DNA from: an uncultured Dehalococcoidia bacterium
GTDB taxonomy: Bacteria; Chloroflexota; Dehalococcoidia; Lucifugimonadales; UBA3495
Assembly: GCA_958296445.1 (NCBI GenBank)
Contig: OY282565.1
Span: 440,458 to 504,457 of the forward strand
Reading direction: 5' to 3'
DNA length: 64,000 nucleotides
Shown: piece after piece, positions 20,752 to 34,550 of the stretch
How the letters are laid out: each line of letters begins with the position of its first letter
Position numbering within the stretch: position 1 is the stretch's first letter
Translations under genes and position numbers: made by a program
Notes under the pieces: generated by a model
Database searches by the model: none
What the model was told of the DNA's origin: nothing
What the model saw: only the letters and a program-made list of their open reading frames with translations

Positions 20752-22026
20752 ATGCTAAAGATAGGCCATGAGGTCGTCCGGCCTGGCAAGTACCACGGCG
20801 ACTCGCCCGTCACTATCCAGGTCCCCGAAGAGCTGGAATCGGTGCCGGGGATTCCCCTCACCAGCCGCGAAGTTGACTGGTACGCCAGGGAATACCCCCT
20901 GGAAACCATGAACATCACCGAGCGGGCATCCCGTGACTGGGCCAACGCCATCCGCGACCAGCACGTCGAGATGCGGGAAATCCGCAAGGAACACGACCGC
21001 CTGAATCAGCCCCTGATTCTGGCCGCCCGCATGACCAGCGAGCAGGAACCGACGGCGGAGCCCACCGGCGAAGACGTAACCGAGTCGATCAAGAACAAGG
21101 CCCGGGAACTCGGCTACATCGAAGTCGGCATCACCGCCTACGACCACCGCTACACCTACCAGAGCAAGAAGGACTGGGTCCAGTTCCCCAACGCCATCTG
21201 CTTGGCCTACGAACAGGACTTCGAGCCGACCCAGACCATCCCCAGCATTGACGCCGAGATCGTCCACTCCAGCACCTACCGCACCGAGGGCGCGGCCGGC
21301 CTGGAGCTGGCGAAGCACATCCAGTCCCTCGGCTACCGGGCGCAGGTGCACAGCCCCAACGACAACACCGGCCCCTACATCCCGATGTTCGTTGCGGCCG
21401 GCCTCGGCTCCCTAGGCGCCTGCGGCTACCTGCTGACCCCCCACGTCGGCTCCCGCTGCCGCATCATGATTATCACCACCGACGCCAACGTCACCCATGA
21501 CTCGCCGGTGGACTACGGCATCCACGCCTTCTGCCAGGTGTGCCAGGTCTGCGTGAACCGCTGCCCGGGCCGCGCCCTGATGCGCGACAAGATCTGGTGG
21601 CGGGGCATCGAAAAGAACAAGCTCTACTTCAAGCGCTGCCGCCCGGTCATGGCCCGCTACCTCGGCTGCGGCATCTGCATGAAGGTCTGCCCGATCCAGA
21701 AGTACGGCATGGCGACGGTGATGGAACACTACGCCGCCACCGGCCAGGTGCTGGGCAAGGGCACCCACGACCTGGAAGGCTACGAACTCGAGGGCAAGGG
21801 CTACTTCGGCCCCGGCGAAATGCCGGTCTTCGAGCGCGAATTCTTCTCGGCTATGCCTCACGGCGACACCGAGGAGTTCGCCTTCGACAACTTCCGCCAG
21901 CGCGCCATGGACAACGGCGGCGTCATCTCCGACGATATGCTGGAAGAGTTCCGCACGGAGGTCGCCCGCGGCCTGCAACAGTCCCGCGACAACATCGGCA
22001 TGATGCAGGAAGAAGACTACATCTAG
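20752..22026 (+). CDS. Reductive dehalogenase/QueG-like 2x[4Fe-4S] protein
   Basis: IKNKARELG..EVGI, AAGLGSLG, FCQVCQVCVNRCP and C-x9-CGICMKVCP; no TAT signal. Confidence 0.8.
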   Translation: MLKIGHEVVRPGKYHGDSPVTIQVPEELESVPGIPLTSREVDWYAREYPLETMNITERASRDWANAIRDQHVEMREIRKEHDRLNQPLILAARMTSEQEPTAEPTGEDVTESIKNKARELGYIEVGITAYDHRYTYQSKKDWVQFPNAICLAYEQDFEPTQTIPSIDAEIVHSSTYRTEGAAGLELAKHIQSLGYRAQVHSPNDNTGPYIPMFVAAGLGSLGACGYLLTPHVGSRCRIMIITTDANVTHDSPVDYGIHAFCQVCQVCVNRCPGRALMRDKIWWRGIEKNKLYFKRCRPVMARYLGCGICMKVCPIQKYGMATVMEHYAATGQVLGKGTHDLEGYELEGKGYFGPGEMPVFEREFFSAMPHGDTEEFAFDNFRQRAMDNGGVISDDMLEEFRTEVARGLQQSRDNIGMMQEEDYI

Positions 22027-22060
22027 CCTTCGCCCCGCATCGCAACCCGTCGGAATCACG

Positions 22061-22087
22061 GGGGGCGGCGTTTCGCCGCCCCCTTTC
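22061..22087 (+). terminator. Intrinsic terminator-like hairpin
   Basis: GGGGGCGGCG-TTT-CGCCGCCCCC followed by TTT. Confidence 0.6.
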
Positions 22088-22204
22088 CGTTGACGTCTCA
22101 TTCCATTCAGGTAAAATATCATTCATAAAGATTCCTTGAACGGAGTCGGTGAACAGGGTAGGGATCCTTTGCCCTGCCCATAAGCCCAAATAAAAGGAGG
22201 GAGT

Positions 22205-22516
22205 ATGCCAGAGTATTCTACTCTAAGGATGGACGTATCCGTCCTTACGGAAGAACGCGAGGACAGATGGGCTTTTTACGTCCACGAATTCGGTTTCACG
22301 GTTTACTCCGAAACCGAGCAGGGGGGAGAGGCCGCCGTTAATGATGCCATCAGTGCGTTGCTGAGCAGTTTCCGTGGCGACGACTCTAGGCTGCGGAAAT
22401 TTTTGGACGCCCATCAAGTAAAGCACAGCTTTGGGGCAGTGGAAGATGCTGGCGATCCACCCCTCACCAGCATGGTGCTCCGGGAAATAGAGGTGCCGCT
22501 TGCCGTTGCCGTCTAG
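22205..22516 (+). CDS. HicB-like protein
   Basis: beta-beta-beta-alpha pattern (EEREDRWAFYVHEFGFTVYSETEQGGEAAVNDAI); AAGGAGG RBS; TTGACG-16-TAAAAT at 22090-22117. Confidence 0.5.
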   Translation: MPEYSTLRMDVSVLTEEREDRWAFYVHEFGFTVYSETEQGGEAAVNDAISALLSSFRGDDSRLRKFLDAHQVKHSFGAVEDAGDPPLTSMVLREIEVPLAVAV

Positions 22517-22745
22517 CCTCACCGGCATCGAAGTCAACGCCTTGCTTGCGGAAATTGGCTTACGCGAAGACTACCGGACCGGCCAAGCCACCGTATTTGT
22601 AGATCCGGCGGACGATACCAAAACAGTAGTAATTCAGGAAGGTTGGGACATTTCAACCAGTGATCTAGTCCGCAATCTCGAACGGAATGGATTTGACTCC
22701 TCCAAGCTCTTGGATGCTTACGAAAAGTTGTATCGCGCAGGCTAG
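22500..22745 (+). CDS. HicA-like small protein
   Basis: LPSSLTGIEVNALLAEIG...TGQATVF...VVI...DIS..DLVRNL matches the HicA layout; overlaps the upstream gene. Confidence 0.5.
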   Translation: MPLPSSLTGIEVNALLAEIGLREDYRTGQATVFVDPADDTKTVVIQEGWDISTSDLVRNLERNGFDSSKLLDAYEKLYRAG

Positions 22746-22785
22746 TTTTCGACAATCCTAATTCGCAAGCAAGGCACCCGCCGAG

Positions 22786-22822
22786 CGAAAAGCGGGCCGG
22801 AACAAAATCCGGCCCGCTTTCG
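22786..22822. terminator. Hairpin terminator
   Basis: AAAGCGGGCCGGA-loop-TCCGGCCCGCTTT. Confidence 0.65.
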
Positions 22823-22862
22823 TATCTGCGCTTGAATAAATCCGATACACTGGCATGGCAGA

Positions 22863-22891
22863 TTGACGCGCCTATGGGAAATGCCTAGAAT
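22863..22891 (+). promoter_or_regulatory. Sigma70-type promoter of the DUF1800 gene
   Basis: TTGACG-17 nt-TAGAAT. Confidence 0.6.
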
Positions 22892-22933
22892 GCGCTTATT
22901 CCTTATGGCATTGCTTCTATCAGGAGAGGGAAT

Positions 22934-24376
22934 ATGCCGGAAACAAAAGTTGACGTTGAATTGATCGCCCACCTGCTGCGCCGGGCCGGGTTCGGCGCCA
23001 CCCGCGAAGAACTGGCCGCCTGCGCCGACAAGGGCTATGCGGCTGTCGTTGAAGAACTGCTGGCCCCCAGAGAAGAGCGGCGCATCAGCGACTACCTAGT
23101 GCGCCGGTTCCACCCGGAACTTTCCGGGATGATGGGCCCCCTGGCCCCCGGCGAAAACTGGCTGTACCGCATGGCGACCACCACTACCCCGTTGCAGGAG
23201 AAAATGACCCTGTTCTGGCACGGCATTTTCGCCACCGGCTACGCCAAAGTCATCCATGGCAAAGCGCTTTCCGACCAGACCCGGATGTTCCGCCGCCACG
23301 CTACGGGCAGCCTCCGCACCCTGTTGCTGGAGCTGTCCAAAGACCCGGCTATGATTATCTGGCTGGACAACCAAGACAACCACAAGGGCGCCATCAACGA
23401 AAACTACGGGCGGGAACTGCTGGAGCTGTTCTCTATGGGCGTGGGCAACTACACCGAAGCGGATATCAAGGAGTGCGCCCGCGCCTTCACCGGCTGGACT
23501 ATCGCCAACCGCCGGTATATGGAACTGCGCTCCCAGCGGGATTCCGACTGGCCCTATGGCCGCATTTCTTGGCATTTCGAGTTTCACCCCGAAGACCACG
23601 ACGACGACGAAAAGACGTTCTTGGGTGAAACCGGCAACTGGAACGGCGACGACATCGTAGACATCATCTGCCAGCAGCCCGCCACCGCCCGGTTCATCGC
23701 CCGCCACCTCTACAGCTTCTTCGTGGCCGACGAGCCGCCGGTGCCGGAGTGGCCCTACACCCCGCCCGCCGACCCCCAGGCCATTGAAATCCTGACCCAA
23801 GCCTACTTCGACAACGATTACAACATTGGCGCGATGCTGCGGACGCTTTTCAACTCCGATTTTTTCCAGTCGCCGGAAGCCCGCTACACCAAAGTCAAGA
23901 GTCCGGTGGAACTGGTGGCCGGCGTCCTGCGGCTCACCGGCGAATTTGACCGGCCCCGCTACGAAATCCTGGAGCGCTACAACCAGGCGTCCTATATGGG
24001 GCAGATACTCAACAACCCGCCCAGCGTCGAAGGCTGGCATCAAGGCACCGACTGGCTGGACAGCGGCACGCTGGTGGAGCGCATCAACTTCGCCAGCCAG
24101 CAGATTGGCGACACGGACAAGCCGGGCATCCGGGCGATGATTGACCGCATCAACGCCCAACTCAGCGAAACCACCTCCCCGGAGCGGCTGGTGGACGCCT
24201 GCCTAGAGGAAGTCGGGGCGCTGTCGGTAGAGGAAGCCACCCGCCGCGAGCTGGTCCGCTTCTCCGCCAGCAGCCTGTCCAAAACGCCCAACGGCCCGGG
24301 CCACACCCCCGCCCGCCAGCACATCGCCGACGTACTCCAGATGGTTGCCGCCACCCAAGAATTTCAGCGGTCATAA
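22934..24376 (+). CDS. DUF1800 domain protein
   Basis: HLLRRAGFG, LQEKMTLFWH, NENYGRELLELFSMG, ARAFTGW and PPSVEGW. Confidence 0.93.
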   Translation: MPETKVDVELIAHLLRRAGFGATREELAACADKGYAAVVEELLAPREERRISDYLVRRFHPELSGMMGPLAPGENWLYRMATTTTPLQEKMTLFWHGIFATGYAKVIHGKALSDQTRMFRRHATGSLRTLLLELSKDPAMIIWLDNQDNHKGAINENYGRELLELFSMGVGNYTEADIKECARAFTGWTIANRRYMELRSQRDSDWPYGRISWHFEFHPEDHDDDEKTFLGETGNWNGDDIVDIICQQPATARFIARHLYSFFVADEPPVPEWPYTPPADPQAIEILTQAYFDNDYNIGAMLRTLFNSDFFQSPEARYTKVKSPVELVAGVLRLTGEFDRPRYEILERYNQASYMGQILNNPPSVEGWHQGTDWLDSGTLVERINFASQQIGDTDKPGIRAMIDRINAQLSETTSPERLVDACLEEVGALSVEEATRRELVRFSASSLSKTPNGPGHTPARQHIADVLQMVAATQEFQRS

Positions 24377-24452
24377 GCAATCCCCACCCCGGCGGGCGGA
24401 GGCGTTCTGCTCCAGCGAATCAGGCCAAGAAAGTCAGAATGGTGGTGTCCCG

Positions 24453-25112
24453 GTGACCACGCAGAGCTTGAAACCGCGACAGGATTCAACGCAAACGCAG
24501 CCGCCGCCGGCCGCGGCCGAGCCGTATGGCCCCATAGTGCTGCGGCTGGCCCCCGCCGTGCGGCTAACGGACGCGCAGTTGGAAAAGCTGTGCGCCTTGA
24601 ACCCTGACATTCGCCTCGAGCTCAATGCCCAGGGAGAACTGGAGCTAATGCCCCCTGTACTCGGATTTACCGGAAACCAAGAATCCAACATTAACGCAGA
24701 TTTGGGCATTTGGGCCAGAGTCGACGGCAGTGGCCTAGTCTTTAGTGCGTCCACTGGTTTCACCCTGCCCAACCGGGCGTTGCGCTCCCCCGACGCATCG
24801 TGGGTTCTCAAAACCCGCTTGGCGGAATTGACCGACGAGCAGAAACGCGGGTTTCCGCAAATCTGCCCTGACTTCGTGATAGAACTGCGCTCCAGCTCCG
24901 ACAGACTGAGCGTGGTGCGCCGCAAAATGGACGAATATATGGAGAACGGCGCCCGGCTGGGCTGGCTGATCGACCCGCTGGAACTGCGGGCGCACATTTA
25001 CCGCCCCAATACGCCCGTCGAAATACTGGATCGTCCGCAATCCCTTTCCGGCGAACCGGAATTGCCCGGATTCACCCTGGACCTGAACCCTATCTGGGAG
25101 CCGGCCTTTTAA
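24453..25112 (+). CDS. Uma2-family endonuclease, array copy 1
   Basis: ELNAQGEL, RSPDASW, CPDFVIELRSSSD, KMDEY and LGWLIDP. GTG start chosen by homology with copies 2-5. Confidence 0.92.
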   Translation: MTTQSLKPRQDSTQTQPPPAAAEPYGPIVLRLAPAVRLTDAQLEKLCALNPDIRLELNAQGELELMPPVLGFTGNQESNINADLGIWARVDGSGLVFSASTGFTLPNRALRSPDASWVLKTRLAELTDEQKRGFPQICPDFVIELRSSSDRLSVVRRKMDEYMENGARLGWLIDPLELRAHIYRPNTPVEILDRPQSLSGEPELPGFTLDLNPIWEPAF

Positions 25113-25151
25113 CCGGCCCCCGCCAAAAACGGATGATATGGTGGTGTCCCG

Positions 25152-25811
25152 GTGACCACTCAGAGCTTGAAACCGCGACAGGATTCAACGCAAACGCAGC
25201 CCGTGCCGGCCGCGGCCGAGCCGTATGGCCCCATCGTGTTGCGGCTGGCCCCCGCCGTGCGGCTAACGGACGCGCAGTTGGAAGAGCTGTGCGCGTTGAA
25301 CCCTGACATTCGCCTCGAGCTCAACGCCCAGGGAGAACTGGAGCTAATGCCCCCTACATTCGGATTTACCTCAAACCAGGAATCCGGCATTAACAGACAG
25401 TTGGGCAATTGGGCCGAGGCAGACGGCAGAGGCCTAGTCTTTAGTCCGTCCATTGGTTTCACTTTGCCCAACCGGGCGTTGCGCTCTCCCGACGCATCGT
25501 GGGTTCTCAAAACCCGCTTGGCGGAATTGACCGATGAGCAGAAACGCGGGTTCCTGCAAATCTGCCCCGATTTCGTAATAGAACTGCGCTCCAGCTCCGA
25601 CAGACTGAGCGTGGTGCGCCGCAAAATGGACGAATATATGGAGAATGGCGCCCGGCTGGGCTGGCTGATCGACCCGCTGGAACTACGGGCGCACATTTAC
25701 CGCCCCAATACGCCCGTCGAAATACTGGAGCGTCCGCAATCCCTTTCCGGCGAACCGGAATTGCCGGGATTCACCCTGGACCTGAACCCTATCTGGGAGC
25801 CGGCCTTTTAA
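25152..25811 (+). CDS. Uma2-family endonuclease, array copy 2
   Basis: Same motifs; 219 aa. Confidence 0.92.
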   Translation: MTTQSLKPRQDSTQTQPVPAAAEPYGPIVLRLAPAVRLTDAQLEELCALNPDIRLELNAQGELELMPPTFGFTSNQESGINRQLGNWAEADGRGLVFSPSIGFTLPNRALRSPDASWVLKTRLAELTDEQKRGFLQICPDFVIELRSSSDRLSVVRRKMDEYMENGARLGWLIDPLELRAHIYRPNTPVEILERPQSLSGEPELPGFTLDLNPIWEPAF

Positions 25812-25850
25812 CCGGCGCCAGCCAAAAACGGATGATATGGTGGTGTCCCG

Positions 25851-26510
25851 GTGACCACGCAGAGCTTGAAACCGCGACAGGATTCAACGCAAACGCAGCC
25901 GCCGCCGGCCGCGGCCGAGCCGTATGGCCCCATCGTGCTGCGGCTGGCCCCCGCCGTGCGGCTAACGGACGCGCAGTTGGAAGAACTGTGTGCCTTGAAT
26001 CCTGATATTCGCATCGAGCTCAACGCCCAGGGAGAACTGGAGCTAATGCCCCCTGCATTCATATTTACCTCAAACCAGAACTCCGGAATTAACAGACAGT
26101 TGGGCAATTGGGCCGAGGCAGACAACAGGGGCTTAACCTTCGACTCGTCCGGCGGTTTCACCTTGCCCAATCGGGCGTTGCGCTCCCCCGATGCCTCGTG
26201 GGTTCTCAAATCCCGCTTGGCAGAATTGACCGACGAACAGAAACGCGGGTTTACGCAAATCTGCCCTGATTTCGTGATAGAACTGCGCTCCAGCTCCGAC
26301 AGACTGAGCCTATTGCGCCGCAAAATGGACGAATACATCGCCAACGGTGCCAGGCTAGGCTGGCTGATCGACCCGCTGGAACTGCGGGCGCACATTTACC
26401 GCCCCAATACCCCCGTCGAAACACTGGAGCGCCCGCAATCCCTTTCCGGCGAACCGGAATTGCCCGGATTCACCCTGTACCTGAACCCTATCTGGGAACC
26501 GGCCTTTTAA
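25851..26510 (+). CDS. Uma2-family endonuclease, array copy 3
   Basis: Same motifs; 219 aa. Confidence 0.92.
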   Translation: MTTQSLKPRQDSTQTQPPPAAAEPYGPIVLRLAPAVRLTDAQLEELCALNPDIRIELNAQGELELMPPAFIFTSNQNSGINRQLGNWAEADNRGLTFDSSGGFTLPNRALRSPDASWVLKSRLAELTDEQKRGFTQICPDFVIELRSSSDRLSLLRRKMDEYIANGARLGWLIDPLELRAHIYRPNTPVETLERPQSLSGEPELPGFTLYLNPIWEPAF

Positions 26511-26549
26511 CCGGCGCCCGACAAAACCGGATGATATGGTGGTGTCCCG

Positions 26550-27209
26550 GTGACCACTCAGAGCTTGAAACCGCGACAGGATTCAACGCAAACGCAGCCC
26601 GTGCCGGCCGCGGCCGAGCCGTATGGCCCCATAGTGCTGCGGCTGGCCCCCGCCGTGCGGCTAACGGACGCGCAGTTGGAAGAGCTGTGCGCCTTGAATC
26701 CTGATATTCGCCTCGAGCTCAACGCCCAGGGAGAACTGGAGCTAATGCCCCCTGTACTCGGATTTACCGGAAACCAAGAATCCAACATTAACGCAGATTT
26801 GGGCATTTGGGCCAGAGTCGACGGCAGTGGCCTAGTCTTTAGTGCGTCCACTGGTTTCACCCTGCCCAACCGGGCGTTGCGCTCCCCTGACGCATCGTGG
26901 GTTCTCAAATCCCGCTTGGCGGCATTGACCGACGAGCAGAAACGCGGGTTCCTGCAAATCTGCCCTGATTTCGTGATAGAACTGCGCTCCAGCTCCGACA
27001 GACTGAGCGTGGTGCGCCGCAAAATGGACGAATATATGGAGAACGGCGCCCGGCTGGGCTGGCTGATCGACCCGATGGAACTCCGGGCGCACATTTACCG
27101 CCCCAATGCGCCCGTCGAAATACTGGATCGTCCGCAATCCCTTTCCGGCGAACCGGAATTGCCCGGCTTCACGCTAGATCTGAACCCTATCTGGGAGCCG
27201 GCCTTTTAA
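26550..27209 (+). CDS. Uma2-family endonuclease, array copy 4
   Basis: Same motifs; 219 aa. Confidence 0.92.
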   Translation: MTTQSLKPRQDSTQTQPVPAAAEPYGPIVLRLAPAVRLTDAQLEELCALNPDIRLELNAQGELELMPPVLGFTGNQESNINADLGIWARVDGSGLVFSASTGFTLPNRALRSPDASWVLKSRLAALTDEQKRGFLQICPDFVIELRSSSDRLSVVRRKMDEYMENGARLGWLIDPMELRAHIYRPNAPVEILDRPQSLSGEPELPGFTLDLNPIWEPAF

Positions 27210-27248
27210 CCGGCCCCCGCCAAAAACGGATGATATGGTGGTGTCCCG

Positions 27249-27908
27249 GTGACCACGCAGAGCTTGAAACCGCGACAGGATTCAACGCAAACGCAGCCGA
27301 CGGCGGCCGCGGTAGAGCCGTATGGCCCCATAGTGCTGCGGCTGGCCCCCGCCGTGCGGCTAACGGACGCGCAGTTGGAAGAACTGTGCGCCTTGAACCC
27401 CGACATTCGCATCGAGCTCAACGCCCAGGGAGAACTGGAGCTAATGCCCCCTGCACTCATAATTACCGGGAAACGGAACTCAAGAATTACCGCCCGTCTG
27501 GATGTCTGGGCCGAGGGCGACGGCAGGGGCATAGCCGTAGACTCGTCCGGCGGTTTCACCCTGCCCAACGGCGCGTTGCGCTCTCCCGACGCATCGTGGG
27601 TTCTCAAAACCCGCTTGGCGGAATTGACCGATGAGCAGAAACGCGGCTTTACGCAAATCTGCCCCGATTTCGTGATAGAACTGCGCTCCAGCTCCGACAG
27701 ACTGAGCGTGGTGCGCCGCAAAATGGACGAGTACATCGCCAACGGCGCCCGGCTGGGCTGGCTGATCGACCCGTTGGAACTGCGGGCGCACATTTACCGC
27801 CCCAATACGCCCGTCGAAACACTGGAGCGCCCGCAATCCCTTTCCGGCGAACCGGAATTGCCGGGCTTCACCCTAGACTTGAACCCTATCTGGGAGCCGG
27901 CCTTCTGA
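27249..27908 (+). CDS. Uma2-family endonuclease, array copy 5
   Basis: Same motifs; 219 aa. Confidence 0.92.
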   Translation: MTTQSLKPRQDSTQTQPTAAAVEPYGPIVLRLAPAVRLTDAQLEELCALNPDIRIELNAQGELELMPPALIITGKRNSRITARLDVWAEGDGRGIAVDSSGGFTLPNGALRSPDASWVLKTRLAELTDEQKRGFTQICPDFVIELRSSSDRLSVVRRKMDEYIANGARLGWLIDPLELRAHIYRPNTPVETLERPQSLSGEPELPGFTLDLNPIWEPAF

Positions 27909-27943
27909 CCGGCCCCGCCAAAAACAACTTTCGAGGCGCAGCT

Positions 27944-28961
<1,018 letters not shown>

Positions 28962-28966
<5 letters not shown>

Positions 28967-29055
28967 CCGCCGGGAATACCGGAAACACCGGGAACGCCGG
29001 GAACACTAGGCACACCGGCAAGAACCATAAAATCTCCGTGAACTCCGCGGTTAAA
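28962..29055. repeat. Degenerate family E inverted repeat with internal 9-bp units
   Basis: TTAACCGC...GCGGTTAA ends with internal CCGGGAACA-like 9-mers. Confidence 0.55.
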
Positions 29056-29073
29056 CGAAAGGAGCTGAACATT

Positions 29074-30207
29074 ATGGTTTCGACGAAACGCGAGCGGTCT
29101 CTGGTCGTCATCGAGCTGAACGGCGGAAACGACGCCCTGAACACCCTGATTCCCTTCAACAACGGCCTGTATTACGACTACCGGCCCGGCATCGGCATAC
29201 CGCAACCGGAAGTGCTGCCCATCAACGGCGAATACGGCTTCAACCCCAATATGGCCCCGGTCAAGAATCTGTGGGACAGTGGCGAGCTGGCCGTCATCAA
29301 CGGCATCGGCTACCCCCAGCCCAACCGCTCCCACTTCCGCTCGCGGGACATCTGGTATACCGCCGAGCCGGAAAGCATCGGCACCCAGGGCTGGCTGGGG
29401 GCCGCCATCCGCGACCTCGACGCCCAAGGCGAGAACGTCCTTACCGGCGTCAACTTCGGGCGCGGCCTGCCCCGCGCCCTAGTCTGCAAGGGCGTGCCGG
29501 TGGCCTCGGTGGGCAACCTAGAAACCTACGGCCTGCTACCCGACATTGACGACGAAAACGTGCGCCACCACGCCCTAGACGCCCTAGGCCGGATGTACGG
29601 CCCGGCCGGGGGCCGGGACATCGTGGCCCAGGCCCTGAGCGAGAACGGCTCCCAGGCCCTGATGGGCGCCGACATCCTCCGCACCGCGCCGGAGCGGTAC
29701 TCCTCCGGCGTGGAGTACGCCGACACGCCCATCTCCCAAAGCCTGAAGAGCGCGGCCCAAGTGATGAGCGCCGGCCTCGGCACCCGCATCCTCTACGCCC
29801 AGCACGGCAGCTTTGACACCCACAGCAACGAGCTCCAGTCCCACGCCAAGCTGTGGCAGGACGCTTCGACGGCCATCAGCGATTTCACCGAAGACCTGAA
29901 GCAGCAGGGCCTTTGGGATGATACGCTGGTGCTGGTGTGGTCGGAGTTCGGGCGGCGCGTCCGCGACAACGGCACCGGCTGCGACCACGGCTCCGGCGGC
30001 GTGGCCTTCGTATTCGGCGGCTCGGTGCAGGGCGGGCTGTACGGGCAATACCCGTCGCTGCGCGAGGCCGACCTGTCCGAGGGCGACCTGGCCTACACCA
30101 CCGACTTCCGCTCCACCTACGCCACCATCCTAGACCGCTGGCTGGCCCTCGACCCCGACCCTATAGTCCACGGCCAGTTCGAGCAGTTCAACTTCATCAG
30201 CCGCTAA
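29074..30207 (+). CDS. DUF1501 domain protein
   Basis: LNGGNDALN, PNRSHFRS, FDTH, SEFGRR and DHG; AAGGAG RBS. Confidence 0.93.
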   Translation: MVSTKRERSLVVIELNGGNDALNTLIPFNNGLYYDYRPGIGIPQPEVLPINGEYGFNPNMAPVKNLWDSGELAVINGIGYPQPNRSHFRSRDIWYTAEPESIGTQGWLGAAIRDLDAQGENVLTGVNFGRGLPRALVCKGVPVASVGNLETYGLLPDIDDENVRHHALDALGRMYGPAGGRDIVAQALSENGSQALMGADILRTAPERYSSGVEYADTPISQSLKSAAQVMSAGLGTRILYAQHGSFDTHSNELQSHAKLWQDASTAISDFTEDLKQQGLWDDTLVLVWSEFGRRVRDNGTGCDHGSGGVAFVFGGSVQGGLYGQYPSLREADLSEGDLAYTTDFRSTYATILDRWLALDPDPIVHGQFEQFNFISR

Positions 30208-30332
30208 CCCCGGCCGCCCGGCACACGGAAATGTAGGGGCGGGCTTTATGCCCGCCCTTATATTGAGAAAATTGCGAAATTACTTCCGCTGTCTGTCCTT
30301 CGGAACAAAGCCCTGTCCTTCGGAACGAACCC

Positions 30333-30401
30333 CTGTCATTCTGAGCAAAGCGAAGAATCCCGACTTGGGCGGTGAGACCCTTCGCTCTGCTCAGGGTGAC
30401 A
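30333..30401. repeat. REP-like family A
   Basis: GTCATTCTGAGCAAAGCGAAGAATC...CCCTTCGCTCTGCTCAGGGTGAC. Confidence 0.88.
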
Positions 30402-30527
30402 TTGAGGGATTCAGACAACCCCCCGGCCCGCATCCAAACCGGGTTGACGGCGCGGCGGCCCGGCCATAAACTCGGATTACGGCATCCCGCAGCCGTCATT
30501 CCATCTGCGCCCGCCGCGAGGCCCGTT

Positions 30528-31286
30528 ATGACCACCAAGCCCGTTGCCCCGGCGCTGGACGCGCCTGACATCATCCAGTTTGCCCCCCCGCCGCCCGATG
30601 AGATGACTGCTTTTTTTAAGGTCAATTTCCCCGGCTACCCCAATTCCCTAGCCGACCACTTCGGCAGCCCGGAAACCACCATCATAACCAGCGAAATCGC
30701 GGCGGCCCTGATGCTCACCCCAGACTGGGAGGGTGTGCGTTATCCCGACCTGCTCATCGCTTTCAACGTTGACCCGGTAGCCGGTTTGGCCCGAAACGGC
30801 TATCTCATCCCCGAACAGGGCAAGCCGCCGGATTTCGTGCTGGAAATCGCCTCGGAAAGAACCGGATACCGCGACGAAACCGTCAAGCGCCTTGATTACG
30901 CTGGGATGGGCGTCCCCGAGTACTGGCGGTTCGACCCCACCGGCGGCCGTTTCTACCGCATCCACCACACCCACATAGCCGGCGACCGGCTGCTGAACGG
31001 CGAATACCAGCCCATAACCATCCACCGGATAGACGATGCGCATTACTGGGGCCACAGCGGCGTGCTGAACCTAGACTTGTGCTGGGAAAACGGCGAACTG
31101 CGCTGGTACGACCCGGCGGCCCAACGCTACCTGCCCACCTTCGACGACGAGCGGGCCGCCCGCATGGCCGCCGAGTCCCGCGCCGATGCCGAGGGCAACC
31201 GCGCCGACGCCGCCGAAGCCCGCGTCCGCCAACTGGAGGCCCAGCTCCGCCGCCAGCAAAACCCCGGCCCGCCGGAAACGCCTTAA
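30528..31286 (+). CDS. Uma2-family endonuclease (second subfamily) with coiled-coil tail, copy 1
   Basis: YPDLLIAF, PPDFVLEIAS and GVPEYWRFDP. ATG 30528 chosen by homology. Confidence 0.9.
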   Translation: MTTKPVAPALDAPDIIQFAPPPPDEMTAFFKVNFPGYPNSLADHFGSPETTIITSEIAAALMLTPDWEGVRYPDLLIAFNVDPVAGLARNGYLIPEQGKPPDFVLEIASERTGYRDETVKRLDYAGMGVPEYWRFDPTGGRFYRIHHTHIAGDRLLNGEYQPITIHRIDDAHYWGHSGVLNLDLCWENGELRWYDPAAQRYLPTFDDERAARMAAESRADAEGNRADAAEARVRQLEAQLRRQQNPGPPETP

Positions 31287-31363
31287 GTGCAGACGGTTAT
31301 ATTGGCGTGGTATGATGGCCGCGTTGCCCCAATCCCACCTTTGCGCCCGCCGCGAGGCCCGTT

Positions 31364-32173
31364 ATGACCACCAAGCCCTTTGCCCCGGCGCCGGACGCGC
31401 CGGATGCGCCGGGCATCATCCAGTTTGCCCCCCCACCGCCCGATGAGATGACTGCTTTCTTTAAGGTAAATTTCCCCGGCTACCCCAATTCCCTAGCCGA
31501 CCACTTCGGCAGCCCGGAAACCACCATCATCACCAGCGAAATCGCGGCGGCCCTGCTACTTACCCCAGACTGGGAGGGTGTGCGCTATCCCGACCTGCTC
31601 ATCGCTTTCAACGTTGACCCGGCCGCCGGGCTGGCCCGCAACGGCTACCTCATCCCGGAGCAGGGCAAGCCGCCGGATTTCGTGCTGGAAATCGCCTCGG
31701 AAAGAACCGGATACCGCGACGAAACCGTCAAGCGCCAAGACTACGCTGGGATGGGTGTTCCCGAATACTGGCGGTTCGACCCCACGGGCGGCCGATTCTA
31801 CCGCGTCCACCGGACGCACATAGCAGGCGACCGGCTGGTTGACGGCGAATACCAGCCCATCACCATCCACCGCACCGACGCCGAACATTACTGGGGCCAC
31901 AGCGACGCCCTGAACCTAGACTTGTGCTGGGAGAACGGCGAACTGCGCTGGTACGACCCGGCGGCCCAACGCTACCTGCCCACCTTCGACGACGAGCGGG
32001 CCGCCCGCCTTGCAGAGTCTAATCGTGCCGACGCCGAGCGAGCCGCCCGCCTTGCCGAGTCTAATCGCGCCGACGCCGAGCGAGCCGCCCGCATCGCTGC
32101 CGAGGCCCGCGTCCGCCAACTGGAGGCCCAGCTCCGCCGCCAGCAAAACCCCGGCCCGCCGGAAACGCCTTAA
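31364..32173 (+). CDS. Uma2-family endonuclease (second subfamily), copy 2
   Basis: Same motifs; extended -10 TGGTATGAT at 31308-31316. Confidence 0.9.
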   Translation: MTTKPFAPAPDAPDAPGIIQFAPPPPDEMTAFFKVNFPGYPNSLADHFGSPETTIITSEIAAALLLTPDWEGVRYPDLLIAFNVDPAAGLARNGYLIPEQGKPPDFVLEIASERTGYRDETVKRQDYAGMGVPEYWRFDPTGGRFYRVHRTHIAGDRLVDGEYQPITIHRTDAEHYWGHSDALNLDLCWENGELRWYDPAAQRYLPTFDDERAARLAESNRADAERAARLAESNRADAERAARIAAEARVRQLEAQLRRQQNPGPPETP

Positions 32174-32215
32174 GCGCAGACGACTGCGAAATTGCCCTTT
32201 GTCGCCCCGCCCCTT

Positions 32216-32340
32216 TTTCACCCTGAGCGTCCCTTTGTCACCCTGAGCGAAGCGAAGGGCCTCACTGCCCAAGCCAAGATTCTTCGCTTTGCTCAGAATG
32301 ACAGGCAGCCAGAATGACAGACGCCAGAGTGACAGACAGC
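32216..32340. repeat. REP-like family A cluster
   Basis: Palindrome plus extra half-sites. Confidence 0.88.
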
Positions 32341-32425
32341 GGTTGCAATTTCGCAATTTTCTCTTATATTGGCGTGGTATGATGGCCGCGTTGCCTTATC
32401 CCACCTTTGCGCCGCGAGGCCCGTT

Positions 32426-33226
32426 ATGATGCTGAAGCCCGTTGCCCCGGTGCTGGACGCGCCTGACATCATCCAGTTTGCCCCCCCGCCGCCCGATGAG
32501 ATGACTGCTTTCTTTAAGGTCAATTTCCCCGGCTACCCCAATTCCCTGGCCGACCACTTCGGCAGCCCGGAAACCACCATCATCACCAGCGAAATCGCCG
32601 CGGCCCTGATGCTCACCCCAGACTGGGAGGGCGTGCGCTATCCCGACCTGCTCATCGCTTTCAATGTTGACCCGGTAGCTGGCCTGGCCCGCAACGGCTA
32701 CCTCATCCCCGAGCAGGGCAAGCCGCCGGATTTCGTGCTGGAAATCGCCTCGGAAAGAACCGGATACCGCGATGAAACCGTCAAGCGGCAGGATTACGCT
32801 GGGATGGGCGTCCCCGAATACTGGCGGTTCGACCCCACGGGCGGCCGATTCTACCGCGTCCACCGCACGCACATAGCCGGCGACCGGCTGGTGGATGGCG
32901 AATACCAGCCCATAACCATCCACCGGACGGACGCTGAGCATTACTGGGGCCACAGCGATGTCCTGAACCTGGACTTGTGCTGGGAGAAGGGCGAACTGCG
33001 CTGGTACGACCCGGCGGCCCAACGCTACCTGCCCACCTTCGACGACGAGCGGGCCGCCCGCCGCGCCGCCGAGTTCCGCGCAGATGCCGCCCAAGCCCAG
33101 CGCGACACTGCCAGAGCCCAACGCGACGCTGCCCGAGCACAGCGCGACGACGCCCAAGCCCGCGTCCGCCAACTGGAGGCCCAGCTTCGCCGCCAGCAAA
33201 GCCCCGGCCCGCCGGAAACGCCTTAA
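32426..33226 (+). CDS. Uma2-family endonuclease (second subfamily), copy 3
   Basis: Same motifs; heptad-repeat tail. Confidence 0.9.
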   Translation: MMLKPVAPVLDAPDIIQFAPPPPDEMTAFFKVNFPGYPNSLADHFGSPETTIITSEIAAALMLTPDWEGVRYPDLLIAFNVDPVAGLARNGYLIPEQGKPPDFVLEIASERTGYRDETVKRQDYAGMGVPEYWRFDPTGGRFYRVHRTHIAGDRLVDGEYQPITIHRTDAEHYWGHSDVLNLDLCWEKGELRWYDPAAQRYLPTFDDERAARRAAEFRADAAQAQRDTARAQRDAARAQRDDAQARVRQLEAQLRRQQSPGPPETP

Positions 33227-33290: not shown

Positions 33291-34550
33291 CTATAGCTGG
33301 AAATCCGCCACCGGCGCGGCGGCGCTGGCGGGCTGCTCCTGACGGAGCGCGTCGGCCAGCTTGGCCAGCTCCGCCTCGTAGGTCGCTGGGTCGCCGGGCC
33401 GCAGGTCGAATATGACGTTTTCGGCGGCCATCGTGCGGGCGGCGCGGGTGCTGGGGCGCTTCAGCCCGTCGTCGGGCGCTACGAAATAGAGCAGCCAGCG
33501 GTCGGCGGACTGTTGCTTGTTGCGGGCCGCCGTGATGTCGTTAAGGATGGCTTCCGTATCCATCGCGCGGGACGAGGCTACCACTATCAGCTTGTCATAG
33601 TTGCGCAGCCACCGTTCCACTTCCTCTTGATCGGATGAGCTTAGGCGCGATACCAACGCGCTGCCCCGCACTCGCTCGGAAAACACCCAATTGCTGACCC
33701 CCAACGCGCTCAGGCCGTCGCTCAACCGGCGGGCAAATTCCTCGTCGCCGTCGCGGCAGGCTATGTAGCACTCCGTCAGAGCGGGCGGCGCGGCGGCGAT
33801 GGTTTCCTGGAAAGACGCCACCGACGGCGGAACCCCGGCCCCGGCCAGAAAAGCGGCGGGAACCAGCCCGCCGGAACGGTACAGCGTATCCAGCCCGATA
33901 GTGCTGGGCGCGTCGTGGCGCGTCTGCTCCAGCCCGGCCGCGGCCCGCAGGTCGCAGTCCTGAAACACGGTGTAGCCCAGCGCCGCGCCGGTTAAGTCGG
34001 CCCCGGTCAAGTCGCAGCCCCAGACTTGGGTTTGGAACAAGTCGGCGCCGTTCAGCGTCGCGCCCGACAGGTTGGCCCGCACCAGAGACGCCCCGGCAAA
34101 GCTGGCGCCGGTAAAATTCGCCCCGGACAAGTTGGCCCCGATAAGACTGGTGCGCTGGAGATTGACGTTGGTCAGATTCGCCCCGGACAAGTTGGCGTCC
34201 GACAGTATGGCGCGATCCAAGTCGGCCCCGGTCAGGTCGGCCCCCCGCAGGTCGGCCCCCCGCATATTCGCCCCGTTGAAAAGGGCGCCGGTAAGGTTGG
34301 CTTCCCGCATATCGGCATGATACAGATGGCAGGGGTTGAGAAAGCAGCCGGAAAGATTGGCCCGCCGCATCACCGCGCCCATCAAATCGGCGTGGCGCAG
34401 GTCGGAGCCGCTGATATTAACCTGCGGAACGCGGGCGTAACTCATATAGGCCGCGTTCAGGTCGAATGACTCATTGGGGTTGGCTTCCCGCCAGCGGGCC
34501 ACCACATCCCGGCCCCGCCGCACCAGTTGCACGTGCTCCATATTCGCCAT
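33291..34550 (-). CDS. Pentapeptide-repeat protein with C-terminal TIR-like domain
   Basis: A(D/N)L(S/T)G repeats, then PSTIGLDT, CYIACRDGDEEFARRL and YDKLIVVAS. Confidence 0.82.
   Translation of the reverse strand: MANMEHVQLVRRGRDVVARWREANPNESFDLNAAYMSYARVPQVNISGSDLRHADLMGAVMRRANLSGCFLNPCHLYHADMREANLTGALFNGANMRGADLRGADLTGADLDRAILSDANLSGANLTNVNLQRTSLIGANLSGANFTGASFAGASLVRANLSGATLNGADLFQTQVWGCDLTGADLTGAALGYTVFQDCDLRAAAGLEQTRHDAPSTIGLDTLYRSGGLVPAAFLAGAGVPPSVASFQETIAAAPPALTECYIACRDGDEEFARRLSDGLSALGVSNWVFSERVRGSALVSRLSSSDQEEVERWLRNYDKLIVVASSRAMDTEAILNDITAARNKQQSADRWLLYFVAPDDGLKRPSTRAARTMAAENVIFDLRPGDPATYEAELAKLADALRQEQPASAAAPVADFQL

Follow-up and report, generated by a model that had tools for sequence, protein, structure and literature searches.

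Five tandem Uma2 genes in a Dehalococcoidia genome share a conserved framework and differ in a mosaic 33-codon cassette

We analysed a window of 64,000 nucleotides from the genome of an uncultured Dehalococcoidia bacterium (contig OY282565.1, positions 440,458 to 504,457 of the forward strand), which holds a tandem array of five genes of the Uma2 family; coordinates without a prefix are positions in this window. The five open reading frames (ORFs) lie on the plus strand, are 219 codons long and start with GTG at 24453, 25152, 25851, 26550 and 27249. As an earlier reading of the letters alone (the original prediction) had claimed, the period is exactly 699 bp, there are no indels and all five genes are intact; the spacers measure 39 nt. 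The array was not detected by Tandem Repeats Finder, because the longest period of that program is 500. The 699-nt units are 87.8-96.3% identical in pairs. Homology between them sets in about 14 nt 5′ of each GTG and ends about 21 nt 3′ of each stop, which indicates that the repeated unit is the gene with a short leader and tail. The features of the array are as follows.

24439..27925, plus strand: whole tandem array with exact period, five 699-bp units (each about 14-17 nt leader, 660-nt coding sequence including the stop, about 21 nt tail)
24453..25112, plus strand: Uma2 copy 1, 219 codons plus stop, GTG start (PF05685, E 1.2e-39, 136 bits)
25152..25811, plus strand: Uma2 copy 2
25851..26510, plus strand: Uma2 copy 3 (an identical protein in the public protein collection is P0006)
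26550..27209, plus strand: Uma2 copy 4, with the same block as copy 1
27249..27908, plus strand: Uma2 copy 5, with the most divergent block (Pfam E 6.9e-39, 133.5 bits)
24657..24755, plus strand: variable cassette of copy 1, codons 69-101 with helix 71-91 and strand 94-98 (table of variable sites; model confidence 86-97); a short-read contig matches 24628-24818 exactly at 2x depth
25356..25454, plus strand: variable cassette of copy 2 (short-read contig 25395-25505 exact, 1x depth)
26055..26153, plus strand: variable cassette of copy 3 (short-read contig 26094-26284 exact, 1x depth)
26754..26852, plus strand: variable cassette of copy 4, inside a 164-nt tract (coding positions 175-338) identical to copy 1
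27453..27551, plus strand: variable cassette of copy 5 (short-read contig 27426-27602 exact, 1x depth)

The GTG of the array genes is the first possible start downstream of an in-frame stop, and the N-terminal motif is conserved across the genus; in the copies of relatives, GTG and motif are kept in 15 of 16, with TTG in one. A longer version of the copy 1 ORF, starting at 24345, has no counterpart in the other units. Residues 1-25 (24453-24530 in copy 1 and the equivalent positions in each copy) form an N-terminal extension that is absent from the Thermus thermophilus protein TT1808 and is predicted to be disordered (predicted local distance difference test, pLDDT, below 50). The first eight residues of this extension are nearly invariant across the genus and are followed by a variable Pro/Ala-rich linker. 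Cyanobacterial relatives likewise begin with a short motif of this kind.

The differences between the copies are concentrated in one segment. The coding sequences have 119 variable sites, 51 within the 99-nt block of codons 69-101 and 68 in the other 561 nt, which we call the framework. The original prediction had given four allele strings for the block, with copies 1 and 4 alike, placed it at 24657-24755 in copy 1 and listed P, L, T, L and T at codon 135; all of this proved correct. Its statement that the copies are nearly identical outside the block was right for the proteins, where the framework has about 18 variable residues, but the framework nevertheless has a synonymous divergence (dS) of 0.10-0.25.

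The copies are mosaic, again as proposed. Copy 4 has V18 in common with copy 2 and S121 in common with copy 3. Seven splits are present among the five copies where one tree allows two informative splits, 716 of 1653 informative site pairs are incompatible and the pairwise homoplasy index (PHI) test gives p 0.010. In addition, block segments found in the alleles of the window are joined anew in the conspecific alleles P0002-P0005. Copies 1 and 4 are identical over a 164-nt tract around the block (coding positions 175-338), none of their 21 differences falling within the block (P 0.03), and copies 3 and 4 of the five-copy array of a congener (G011) share an identical tract of 293 nt around theirs. 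These tracts indicate that whole cassettes move between copies. A search of each block against the genome with blastn found only the array's own copies and two short matches at chance level, and a scan of the genome for reverse transcriptases gave a single RVT_1 match, at C1:2522663, about 2 Mb away. Together these results exclude silent donor cassettes and a diversity-generating retroelement. For the retroelement a template repeat is missing as well; a silent-cassette system of antigenic variation is further ruled out by the five units, all complete ORFs with the same start and stop, and by the absence of partial copies elsewhere. With no block copy elsewhere in the genome, import of blocks from other paralogs was likewise rejected.

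The original prediction had named an assembly chimera of strain alleles as the finding that would speak against it. Short-read depths, taken from de Bruijn contigs of three runs (X1, X2 and X3) of one sample, which is possibly the source sample of the genome assembly, show that this is not the case. In run X1, the contigs found only in the block of copy 2, 3 or 5 have depths of 40.9, 42.1 and 42.6, single-copy flanks 36.8 and 40.6, the block common to copies 1 and 4 74.8, and contigs common to about three copies 108-110. The ratios in runs X2 and X3 are the same. Each allele is thus as deep as the flanks, whereas strain variants of one gene would sum to the depth of the flanks, and we conclude that the array is real. 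Run X5 yielded only one piece of 218 nt at depth 2.7. The order of the copies is that of the assembly, because no short-read contig spans the whole array; some stretches have no contig cover (for instance 26656-26903 and 27152-27399), and we do not read this as absence. In each of the three runs one contig links 27574 with the earlier position 24936 (2639 back, side of 33 letters), out of the 699-bp register, and several loose contig ends in 24300-28000 lead into unrelated sequence. This joint and the loose ends may belong to other Uma2 paralogs or to related strains in the sample. Further alleles, 87-96% identical to the array copies, are present in the protein collection; the longest contig listed is a single 1.6-Mb one for three of them, and two are listed with a single contig of 22 kb.

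By profile and by model, the array proteins are predicted nucleases of the Uma2/COG4636 branch of the PD-(D/E)XK fold. Copies 1 and 5 match Pfam Uma2 (PF05685, COG4636) across positions 2-171 of the 172-position profile, with 136 and 133.5 bits (cut-off 27). In a scan of the genome, which is one contig of 4.0 Mb with 124 Uma2 matches, all five copies scored 133.9-137.6 bits. For comparative work we used an alignment of 68 rows, made of four window copies and 64 of the 120 listed relatives, with near-duplicates thinned by eye out of 125 sequences. A profile of these relatives found TT1808 of T. thermophilus in the Protein Data Bank (1wdj, E 4.6e-42). The AlphaFold2 (AF2) model has a mean pLDDT of 84.3 and the restriction-endonuclease-like fold of 1wdj. 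Its top Foldseek matches are 1wdj_A (E 3e-21, template modelling score 0.78) and 1wdj_B (E 3e-18, score 0.93), scored by target length, and 1wdj_B superposes with a root-mean-square deviation of 1.7 over 150 columns. All of the best matches (1wdj, 3ot2, 6okh and 9y1l) are uncharacterised Uma2 proteins.

The predicted active site is conserved. All five copies have D114, E144, R146 and K158, which do not vary among the 68 aligned relatives, and in the same catalytic columns of the genome's 124 Uma2 genes the Asp is found in 122, the Glu in 123 and the Lys in 119. The proteins thus carry the PD...E-X-X...K core with the Lys moved to the next helix, as defined by Feder and Bujnicki 2005 (PMC551604; this and the other papers below are cited from excerpts), and R146 stands at the classical Lys position. 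The same excerpts place a His, found in most of the family, at the predicted active site and describe a PD-EXR-K variant that has Thr or Ser at this position. The array proteins belong to this variant, with Thr73 at the His position. In the hidden Markov model (HMM) alignment of the 124 genes, the Thr73 column is occupied in 52, and 34 of these have His. Thr73 is invariant in the five copies and sits inside the variable block.

The original prediction placed the block in the helix and strand preceding the catalytic PD, and this agrees with the secondary structure of the AF2 model, in which the block comprises helix 71-91 and strand 94-98 at pLDDT 86-97. The same segment varies in the wider family. 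Among 62 relatives outside the species, the most variable 33-residue stretch of the folded part starts at residue 69, with an entropy of 1.50 bits compared to 0.81-0.96 elsewhere. W87 and G94 are nevertheless invariant in these relatives, L84, A88, D91, G92 and F97 are nearly so, and the block length is constant in all 30 sequences of the tree alignment described below. Along the helix the strongest period of the entropy is 100 degrees per residue, which suggests that one helix face is conserved and presumably packed and that the other is variable and presumably exposed. The variable residues of the block thus lie on one helical face. A homodimer prediction (residues 26-219, two copies, 68-row alignment) scored 0.05 against a mark of 0.42, which speaks neither for nor against a dimer. 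The solved Uma2 structures have two or three chains per entry.

Framework and block follow two evolutionary regimes. We fitted a maximum-likelihood (ML) codon model to pairs of copies, using two non-overlapping pairs per array. In the window array the ratio of nonsynonymous to synonymous divergence (omega, or dN/dS) was 0.06 for the framework, with branch lengths of 0.12-0.24 substitutions per codon, and 1.14 for the block, with branch lengths of 0.84-1.23; the latter omega is not different from 1 (twice the log-likelihood difference, 2dlnL, 0.11). In G011 the framework gave 0.24 (branch lengths 0.37-0.51) and the block 0.37 (1.18-2.35), the block value being below 1 (2dlnL 8.3). Divergence of the block is therefore three to seven times that of the framework. 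Counts after Nei and Gojobori gave a dN/dS of 0.08-0.22 at a dS of 0.10-0.25 for the framework, and 0.6-2.0 for the block (dS 0.14-0.69, dN 0.21-0.57); the two pairs at 2.0 represent 18 nonsynonymous against 3 synonymous changes and are not taken as significant here, and the ML values supersede these counts. In the 10 other computable arrays of the same gene class in the genome (the full-length class, about 190-230 amino acids (aa), which includes the window array) block omega was 0.23-0.62. Block dS exceeded framework dS in 9 of 10 computable arrays, and two further arrays were saturated. The original prediction had named a block dN/dS at or below neutral as a result that would refute it. We found it at neutral in the window and below it in G011, so diversification by positively selected point substitutions is not shown. 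The signal thus lies in a block several times more diverged than its flanks at synonymous and nonsynonymous sites alike, rather than in excess nonsynonymous change. Such a pattern is expected when the flanks, but not the block, undergo repeated homogenisation. The data show block alleles, old or fast-diverging, that are maintained next to each other as the flanks are converted.

Trees of the two parts, each built on 30 rows (21 copies from the locus and 9 of 12 proteins fetched), agree with this. In the framework tree the five G011 copies form one clade (Shimodaira-Hasegawa-like approximate likelihood-ratio test, SH-aLRT, 99), and the copies of the window species form one tight group with the alleles P0001-P0005. 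The homogenised framework of the original prediction is thus borne out, by the grouping of copies by genome and by the excess divergence of the block. In the block tree path lengths are about ten times longer, and copy 5 groups with the congeners G008 and G015. In approximately unbiased (AU) tests on the block, a single origin of the window species' alleles was not rejected (p 0.29), and the corresponding value for G011 was 0.06.

The same contrast recurs in many other arrays, across two phyla. All 12 arrays of the full-length class in the genome vary most in HMM columns 11-40, which correspond to the block segment. Outside the genome we surveyed 127 loci of other genomes and metagenomes, among them 16 tandem arrays, of which 15 were evaluable, with pairs in which over 80 columns of the framework and over 25 of the block were filled. 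Block identity was lower than framework identity in 14 of these 15, and in all nine arrays with a framework identity of at least 0.7 it was much lower (mean 0.54 compared to 0.88). In a scan of metagenomes all matches were relatives at 45-59% identity, and other alleles of the window species were absent. Two further arrays with exact periods were seen in the genome itself, seven copies at 605 bp (C1:1595910-1600370, minus strand) and three at 640 bp (C1:3260566-3262430, minus strand). The genes of both carry the His, and here too the variation falls in the block. In the array of seven, block types recur as mosaics, and two copies, at 1597120 and 1598330, do not differ in their first 75 aligned columns.

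Three cyanobacterial pairs among the outside arrays, from Spirulina subsalsa, cyanobacterium UBA2566 and Jaaginema sp., were especially informative. In the Spirulina pair the framework is 98% identical, and codons 1-60 have 0 nucleotide differences, the following 30 codons have 35 and the last 110 about 10. The same two block types are present in all three cyanobacteria. The block tree groups the sequences by type, with pairing within genomes rejected (AU p 0.0004), and the framework tree groups them by genome, with grouping by type rejected (AU p 0.0004). Block types shared across species, together with frameworks homogenised within each genome, indicate that diversity is kept while the flanks are converted. 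Between the species a given block type is 79-88% identical, compared to 76-82% for the framework. Each type is therefore as conserved as the framework, which is hard to reconcile with an unconstrained loop.

The array lies in a conserved neighbourhood, together with a second Uma2 array.

22934..24376, plus strand: DUF1800 protein, upstream neighbour and conserved left flank (Pfam E 4e-107; synteny in 12 of 12 congeners)
27944-28966, plus strand: NHL-repeat protein, downstream, conserved right flank (Pfam, synteny)
29038-30207, plus strand: DUF1501 protein, downstream, conserved right flank (Pfam, synteny)
30372..33226, plus strand: second Uma2 array, long class, three genes with near-identical domains, followed C-terminally by an Ala/Arg/Asp/Glu-rich repeat that varies in length (Pfam)

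The order DUF1800, Uma2, NHL, DUF1501 was found in all 12 congeners fetched, 11 of them with one Uma2 copy and G011 with five. Across these congeners the flanking proteins are 80-94% identical, the Uma2 protein only 59-76%. The flanking genes of G011 are the closest to those of the window (DUF1501 93%, the Fer4 protein 94%), and in the framework tree the window copies stand with G009, G005 and G016, the G011 copies in the other main clade. The history of Uma2 is thus discordant with that of its neighbours, which could reflect exchange between species or very uneven rates. Gaps of 36-76 nt suggest that the array genes are probably co-transcribed with their neighbours. A scan for promoters and terminators gave counts at the level of shuffled sequence and no plus-strand site inside the array; a promoter-like site, a consensus match only, lies at 22863-22891 upstream of the DUF1800 gene. 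No mobile-element genes and no CRISPR or other known defence genes were seen among the neighbours scanned at the locus. No cognate methyltransferase was found among the nine neighbouring ORFs scanned with Pfam (20752-31286), orphan methylases in the rest of the genome lying outside this search. The 39-nt spacers contain no ORF, hence no antitoxin gene, and with DUF1800 and NHL proteins as neighbours the locus does not have the layout of a type II toxin-antitoxin system. Between the Fer4 protein and DUF1800 (22205-22745, plus strand) there are two small overlapping ORFs of 103 and 81 aa without Pfam match, which have 78-80% identical counterparts in G009 and were undetected in the loci of the other 11 congeners.

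The 124 Uma2 genes of the genome form 60 groups, of which 29 are singletons and 31 are tandem arrays with two to seven genes. The original prediction had held that the family usually occurs as dispersed divergent copies. This is wrong here, where 95 of the 124 genes are in arrays, and the excerpts of Makarova et al. 2009 already say that the family mostly forms cassettes of paralogous genes, listing it as a likely solo toxin. Within the genus, the family was found in all 18 species searched, with 13 to more than 110 candidates each, compared to 0-23 in the other genera of the order. Next to the full-length class there is a long class (about 260-350 aa); within its arrays the Uma2 domains share 97-99% identity. 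Only Pfam positions of about 64-153 match in these genes, and the periods of their arrays are irregular (about 780-1210 bp). Besides 30372-33226 (plus strand) there are 19 others, for example C1:100502-104760, 2903045-2907410 and 3448749-3453934. The three long-class copies of the window differ mainly in the C-terminal Ala/Arg/Asp/Glu-rich helical repeat, which varies in length and sequence and precedes a conserved tail; this repeat is another hypervariable module on the Uma2 family. Directly after the long-class array, a gene at 33291-34550 on the minus strand encodes a protein of 419 aa that contains pentapeptide repeats (Pfam E 3e-43). Its C-terminal part matches TIR_2 weakly (E 6e-4; 20.7 bits, where the cut-off is 28), and it is possibly a defence-type gene.

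We propose that the array arose by unequal crossing-over of the 699-bp gene-plus-spacer unit, at a locus that has a single copy in most species of the genus. The framework, including D114, E144, R146 and K158, is under strong purifying selection and would be kept alike within the genome by gene conversion. The 33-codon cassette would expose one face of helix 71-91 and strand 94-98, wrapped around Thr73. Its alleles, of four types here and far more diverged than the flanks, would be reshuffled by short-patch conversion and retained as distinct types. The cassette would then be the part that makes each paralog functionally distinct, by first choice as a recognition surface for a nucleic-acid substrate beside the catalytic pocket and by second choice for a protein partner. 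The array would form a small germline repertoire of specificities, its copy number set by unequal exchange and its set of alleles by conversion. We put the probability of this explanation as a whole, with two regimes, a cassette that distinguishes the paralogs and a recognition repertoire, at about 55%. Its parts differ in strength. Evolution in two regimes with retained cassette diversity is highly probable. That the cassette determines specificity is somewhat likely, and a nucleic acid rather than a protein as its ligand is a tentative choice.

Several points weigh against this explanation. The strongest evidence for retention comes from cyanobacterial relatives that are 45-55% identical to the window proteins and would apply to the array by analogy, and the cyanobacterial block groups were named after inspection of the alignment. 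For the window array itself, sharing of block types across species is only suggestive, given the non-rejecting AU tests. Positive selection on the block is not demonstrated, with an omega of about 1 here, 0.37 in G011 and 0.23-0.62 elsewhere. The exposure of the block and its nearness to the active site are deduced from helical periodicity, from Thr73 in the His column and from published modelling, and we found no published nuclease activity of any Uma2 member in the literature searched. Finally, if sequence divergence acts as a barrier to conversion, the block could stay diverged with no selection for diversity. This last point leads to the reading of the cassette as a neutral by-product, in which the least constrained surface of the fold diverges after duplication, mismatches then stop conversion tracts, and the copies have no separate functions. 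The near-neutral block omega of the window array would suit it, as would the variability of the same segment among single-copy orthologues and a block dS raised alongside dN, as if conversion were merely excluded. However, the segment is under constraint in G011 and in the other arrays, its length does not change in the 30 aligned sequences, and the cyanobacterial block types are as conserved between species as the framework. Conversion tracts also span the whole block in copies 1 and 4 and in G011 copies 3 and 4, so heterology is no absolute barrier, and all five genes are intact with a framework omega of 0.06. We therefore regard the neutral account as unlikely.

About equally unlikely is that the cassette is a protein-protein interface, which would set the pairing of paralogs or be the surface targeted by an antitoxin-like or phage-encoded inhibitor. 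The two or three chains in each solved Uma2 entry are consistent with this, as are the excerpts of Makarova 2009, where the family typically forms cassettes of paralogs without known antitoxin, and the two block types that travel paired in three cyanobacteria would suit a heterodimer. However, no interface evidence was seen, most congeners are single-copy at the locus, so a partner paralog is not required, and the position of the block beside the active-site Thr/His fits substrate contact at least as well. Selfish proliferation, in which nuclease activity provokes recombination and array and mosaicism are side-effects without a host repertoire, was proposed for the family in the excerpts of Feder and Bujnicki 2005 (PMC551604). 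It is in keeping with 124 copies in 4.0 Mb, with the 13 to more than 110 candidates in congeners and with a copy number of one or five at the locus. Against this, the locus is syntenic and vertically kept between conserved genes in 12 of 12 congeners, no mobile-element genes were seen among the scanned neighbours and purifying selection on the framework is strong; it also leaves unexplained why one segment alone stays different, and we consider it very unlikely. The idea that the array is an artefact of stacked strain alleles, or the product of targeted hypermutation by a diversity-generating retroelement, is largely refuted and scarcely credible. It could draw on the genome being a single contig assembled from a metagenome, and on substitutions involving A at 30 of 45 biallelic block sites compared to 21 of 64 in the framework. 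This bias is, however, what would arise where most changes are nonsynonymous and fall at the first and second positions of codons, and unique blocks stand at flank depth and the shared block at twice that depth in three runs of one sample. Moreover, G011 has its own five-copy array, no further block copy in the genome could serve as template and the sole reverse transcriptase match is about 2 Mb away.

A role in defence is a lead only. The array copies have weak matches to the candidate defence family PDC-S03 of PADLOC (E 4.1e-5 and 1.1e-5, 21-23 bits, in a library without curated cut-off), and the long-class neighbour matches it with E 7e-13. Excerpts of a study of Microcystis (PMC11855584) report Uma2 homologues within two type III CRISPR clusters. 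In contrast to these clusters, the window locus has no CRISPR or known defence genes among the scanned neighbours, and PDC-S03 is itself only a candidate family. The broader idea that Uma2 arrays are recombination-shuffled germline recognition repertoires, giving bacteria with tens to over a hundred copies a library of sequence-, structure- or modification-specific nucleases or of partner-specific nuclease pairs for self/non-self discrimination against phages or invading DNA, is in our estimate rather unlikely. What the array does offer is an experimental handle. Uma2/COG4636 is among the most expanded function-less families in cyanobacteria, in Thermus and in a Dehalococcoidia genus, and the literature since 2005 has treated it only as a predicted endonuclease, perhaps selfish, perhaps a solo toxin. 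A cassette that appears to lie beside the active site and differs between otherwise alike tandem copies can be swapped between natural frameworks.

With respect to the published family, the array proteins have the same full-length domain as TT1808, the fold of 1wdj, the PD-EXR-K variant with Thr and a lineage-specific expansion; the differences are a Dehalococcoidia host and the 124 genes, 95 of them in arrays. Expansion and tandem duplication of the family are in print (Feder and Bujnicki 2005, PMC551604; Omelchenko 2005; Cheng 2022), in excerpts of which the first calls tandem duplications rare, and an excerpt of Steczkiewicz 2012 still lists the function as predicted endonuclease. We found no description of a bounded variable cassette, of its exchange, of types shared across species or of the contrast with a homogenised framework in the literature searched, which included few subscription journals and no supplements. 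Thus expansion, tandem cassettes and the selfish and solo-toxin ideas are known, and a bounded exchangeable cassette in a homogenised framework is, judged from sequence comparison, apparently new.

Cassette-type variation is known from Neisseria pilE/pilS, from Borrelia vlsE and from diversity-generating retroelements. The window array resembles these systems in that a short gene segment is replaced by patches copied from related sequence. In contrast to them it has no silent cassettes, no template repeat and no nearby reverse transcriptase, and all its copies are complete and co-oriented. The exons for the peptide-binding region of the major histocompatibility complex (MHC) and the clusters of plant NLR genes (for nucleotide binding and leucine-rich repeats) are multigene families that undergo concerted evolution with a protected variable region. 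Unlike these, the window array encodes a bacterial enzyme fold in 699-bp units, forms one probable operon and shows no demonstrated nonsynonymous excess. The likeness lies in flanks that appear to be converted while the putative recognition segment keeps old mosaic alleles, some of them across species. The array appears to be a clean example in bacteria of concerted evolution around a variable region that is protected. If Uma2 arrays are recognition repertoires of the kind considered above, gene conversion would both preserve the framework and make the cassette mosaics, as a bacterial analogue of the evolution of MHC and NLR clusters.

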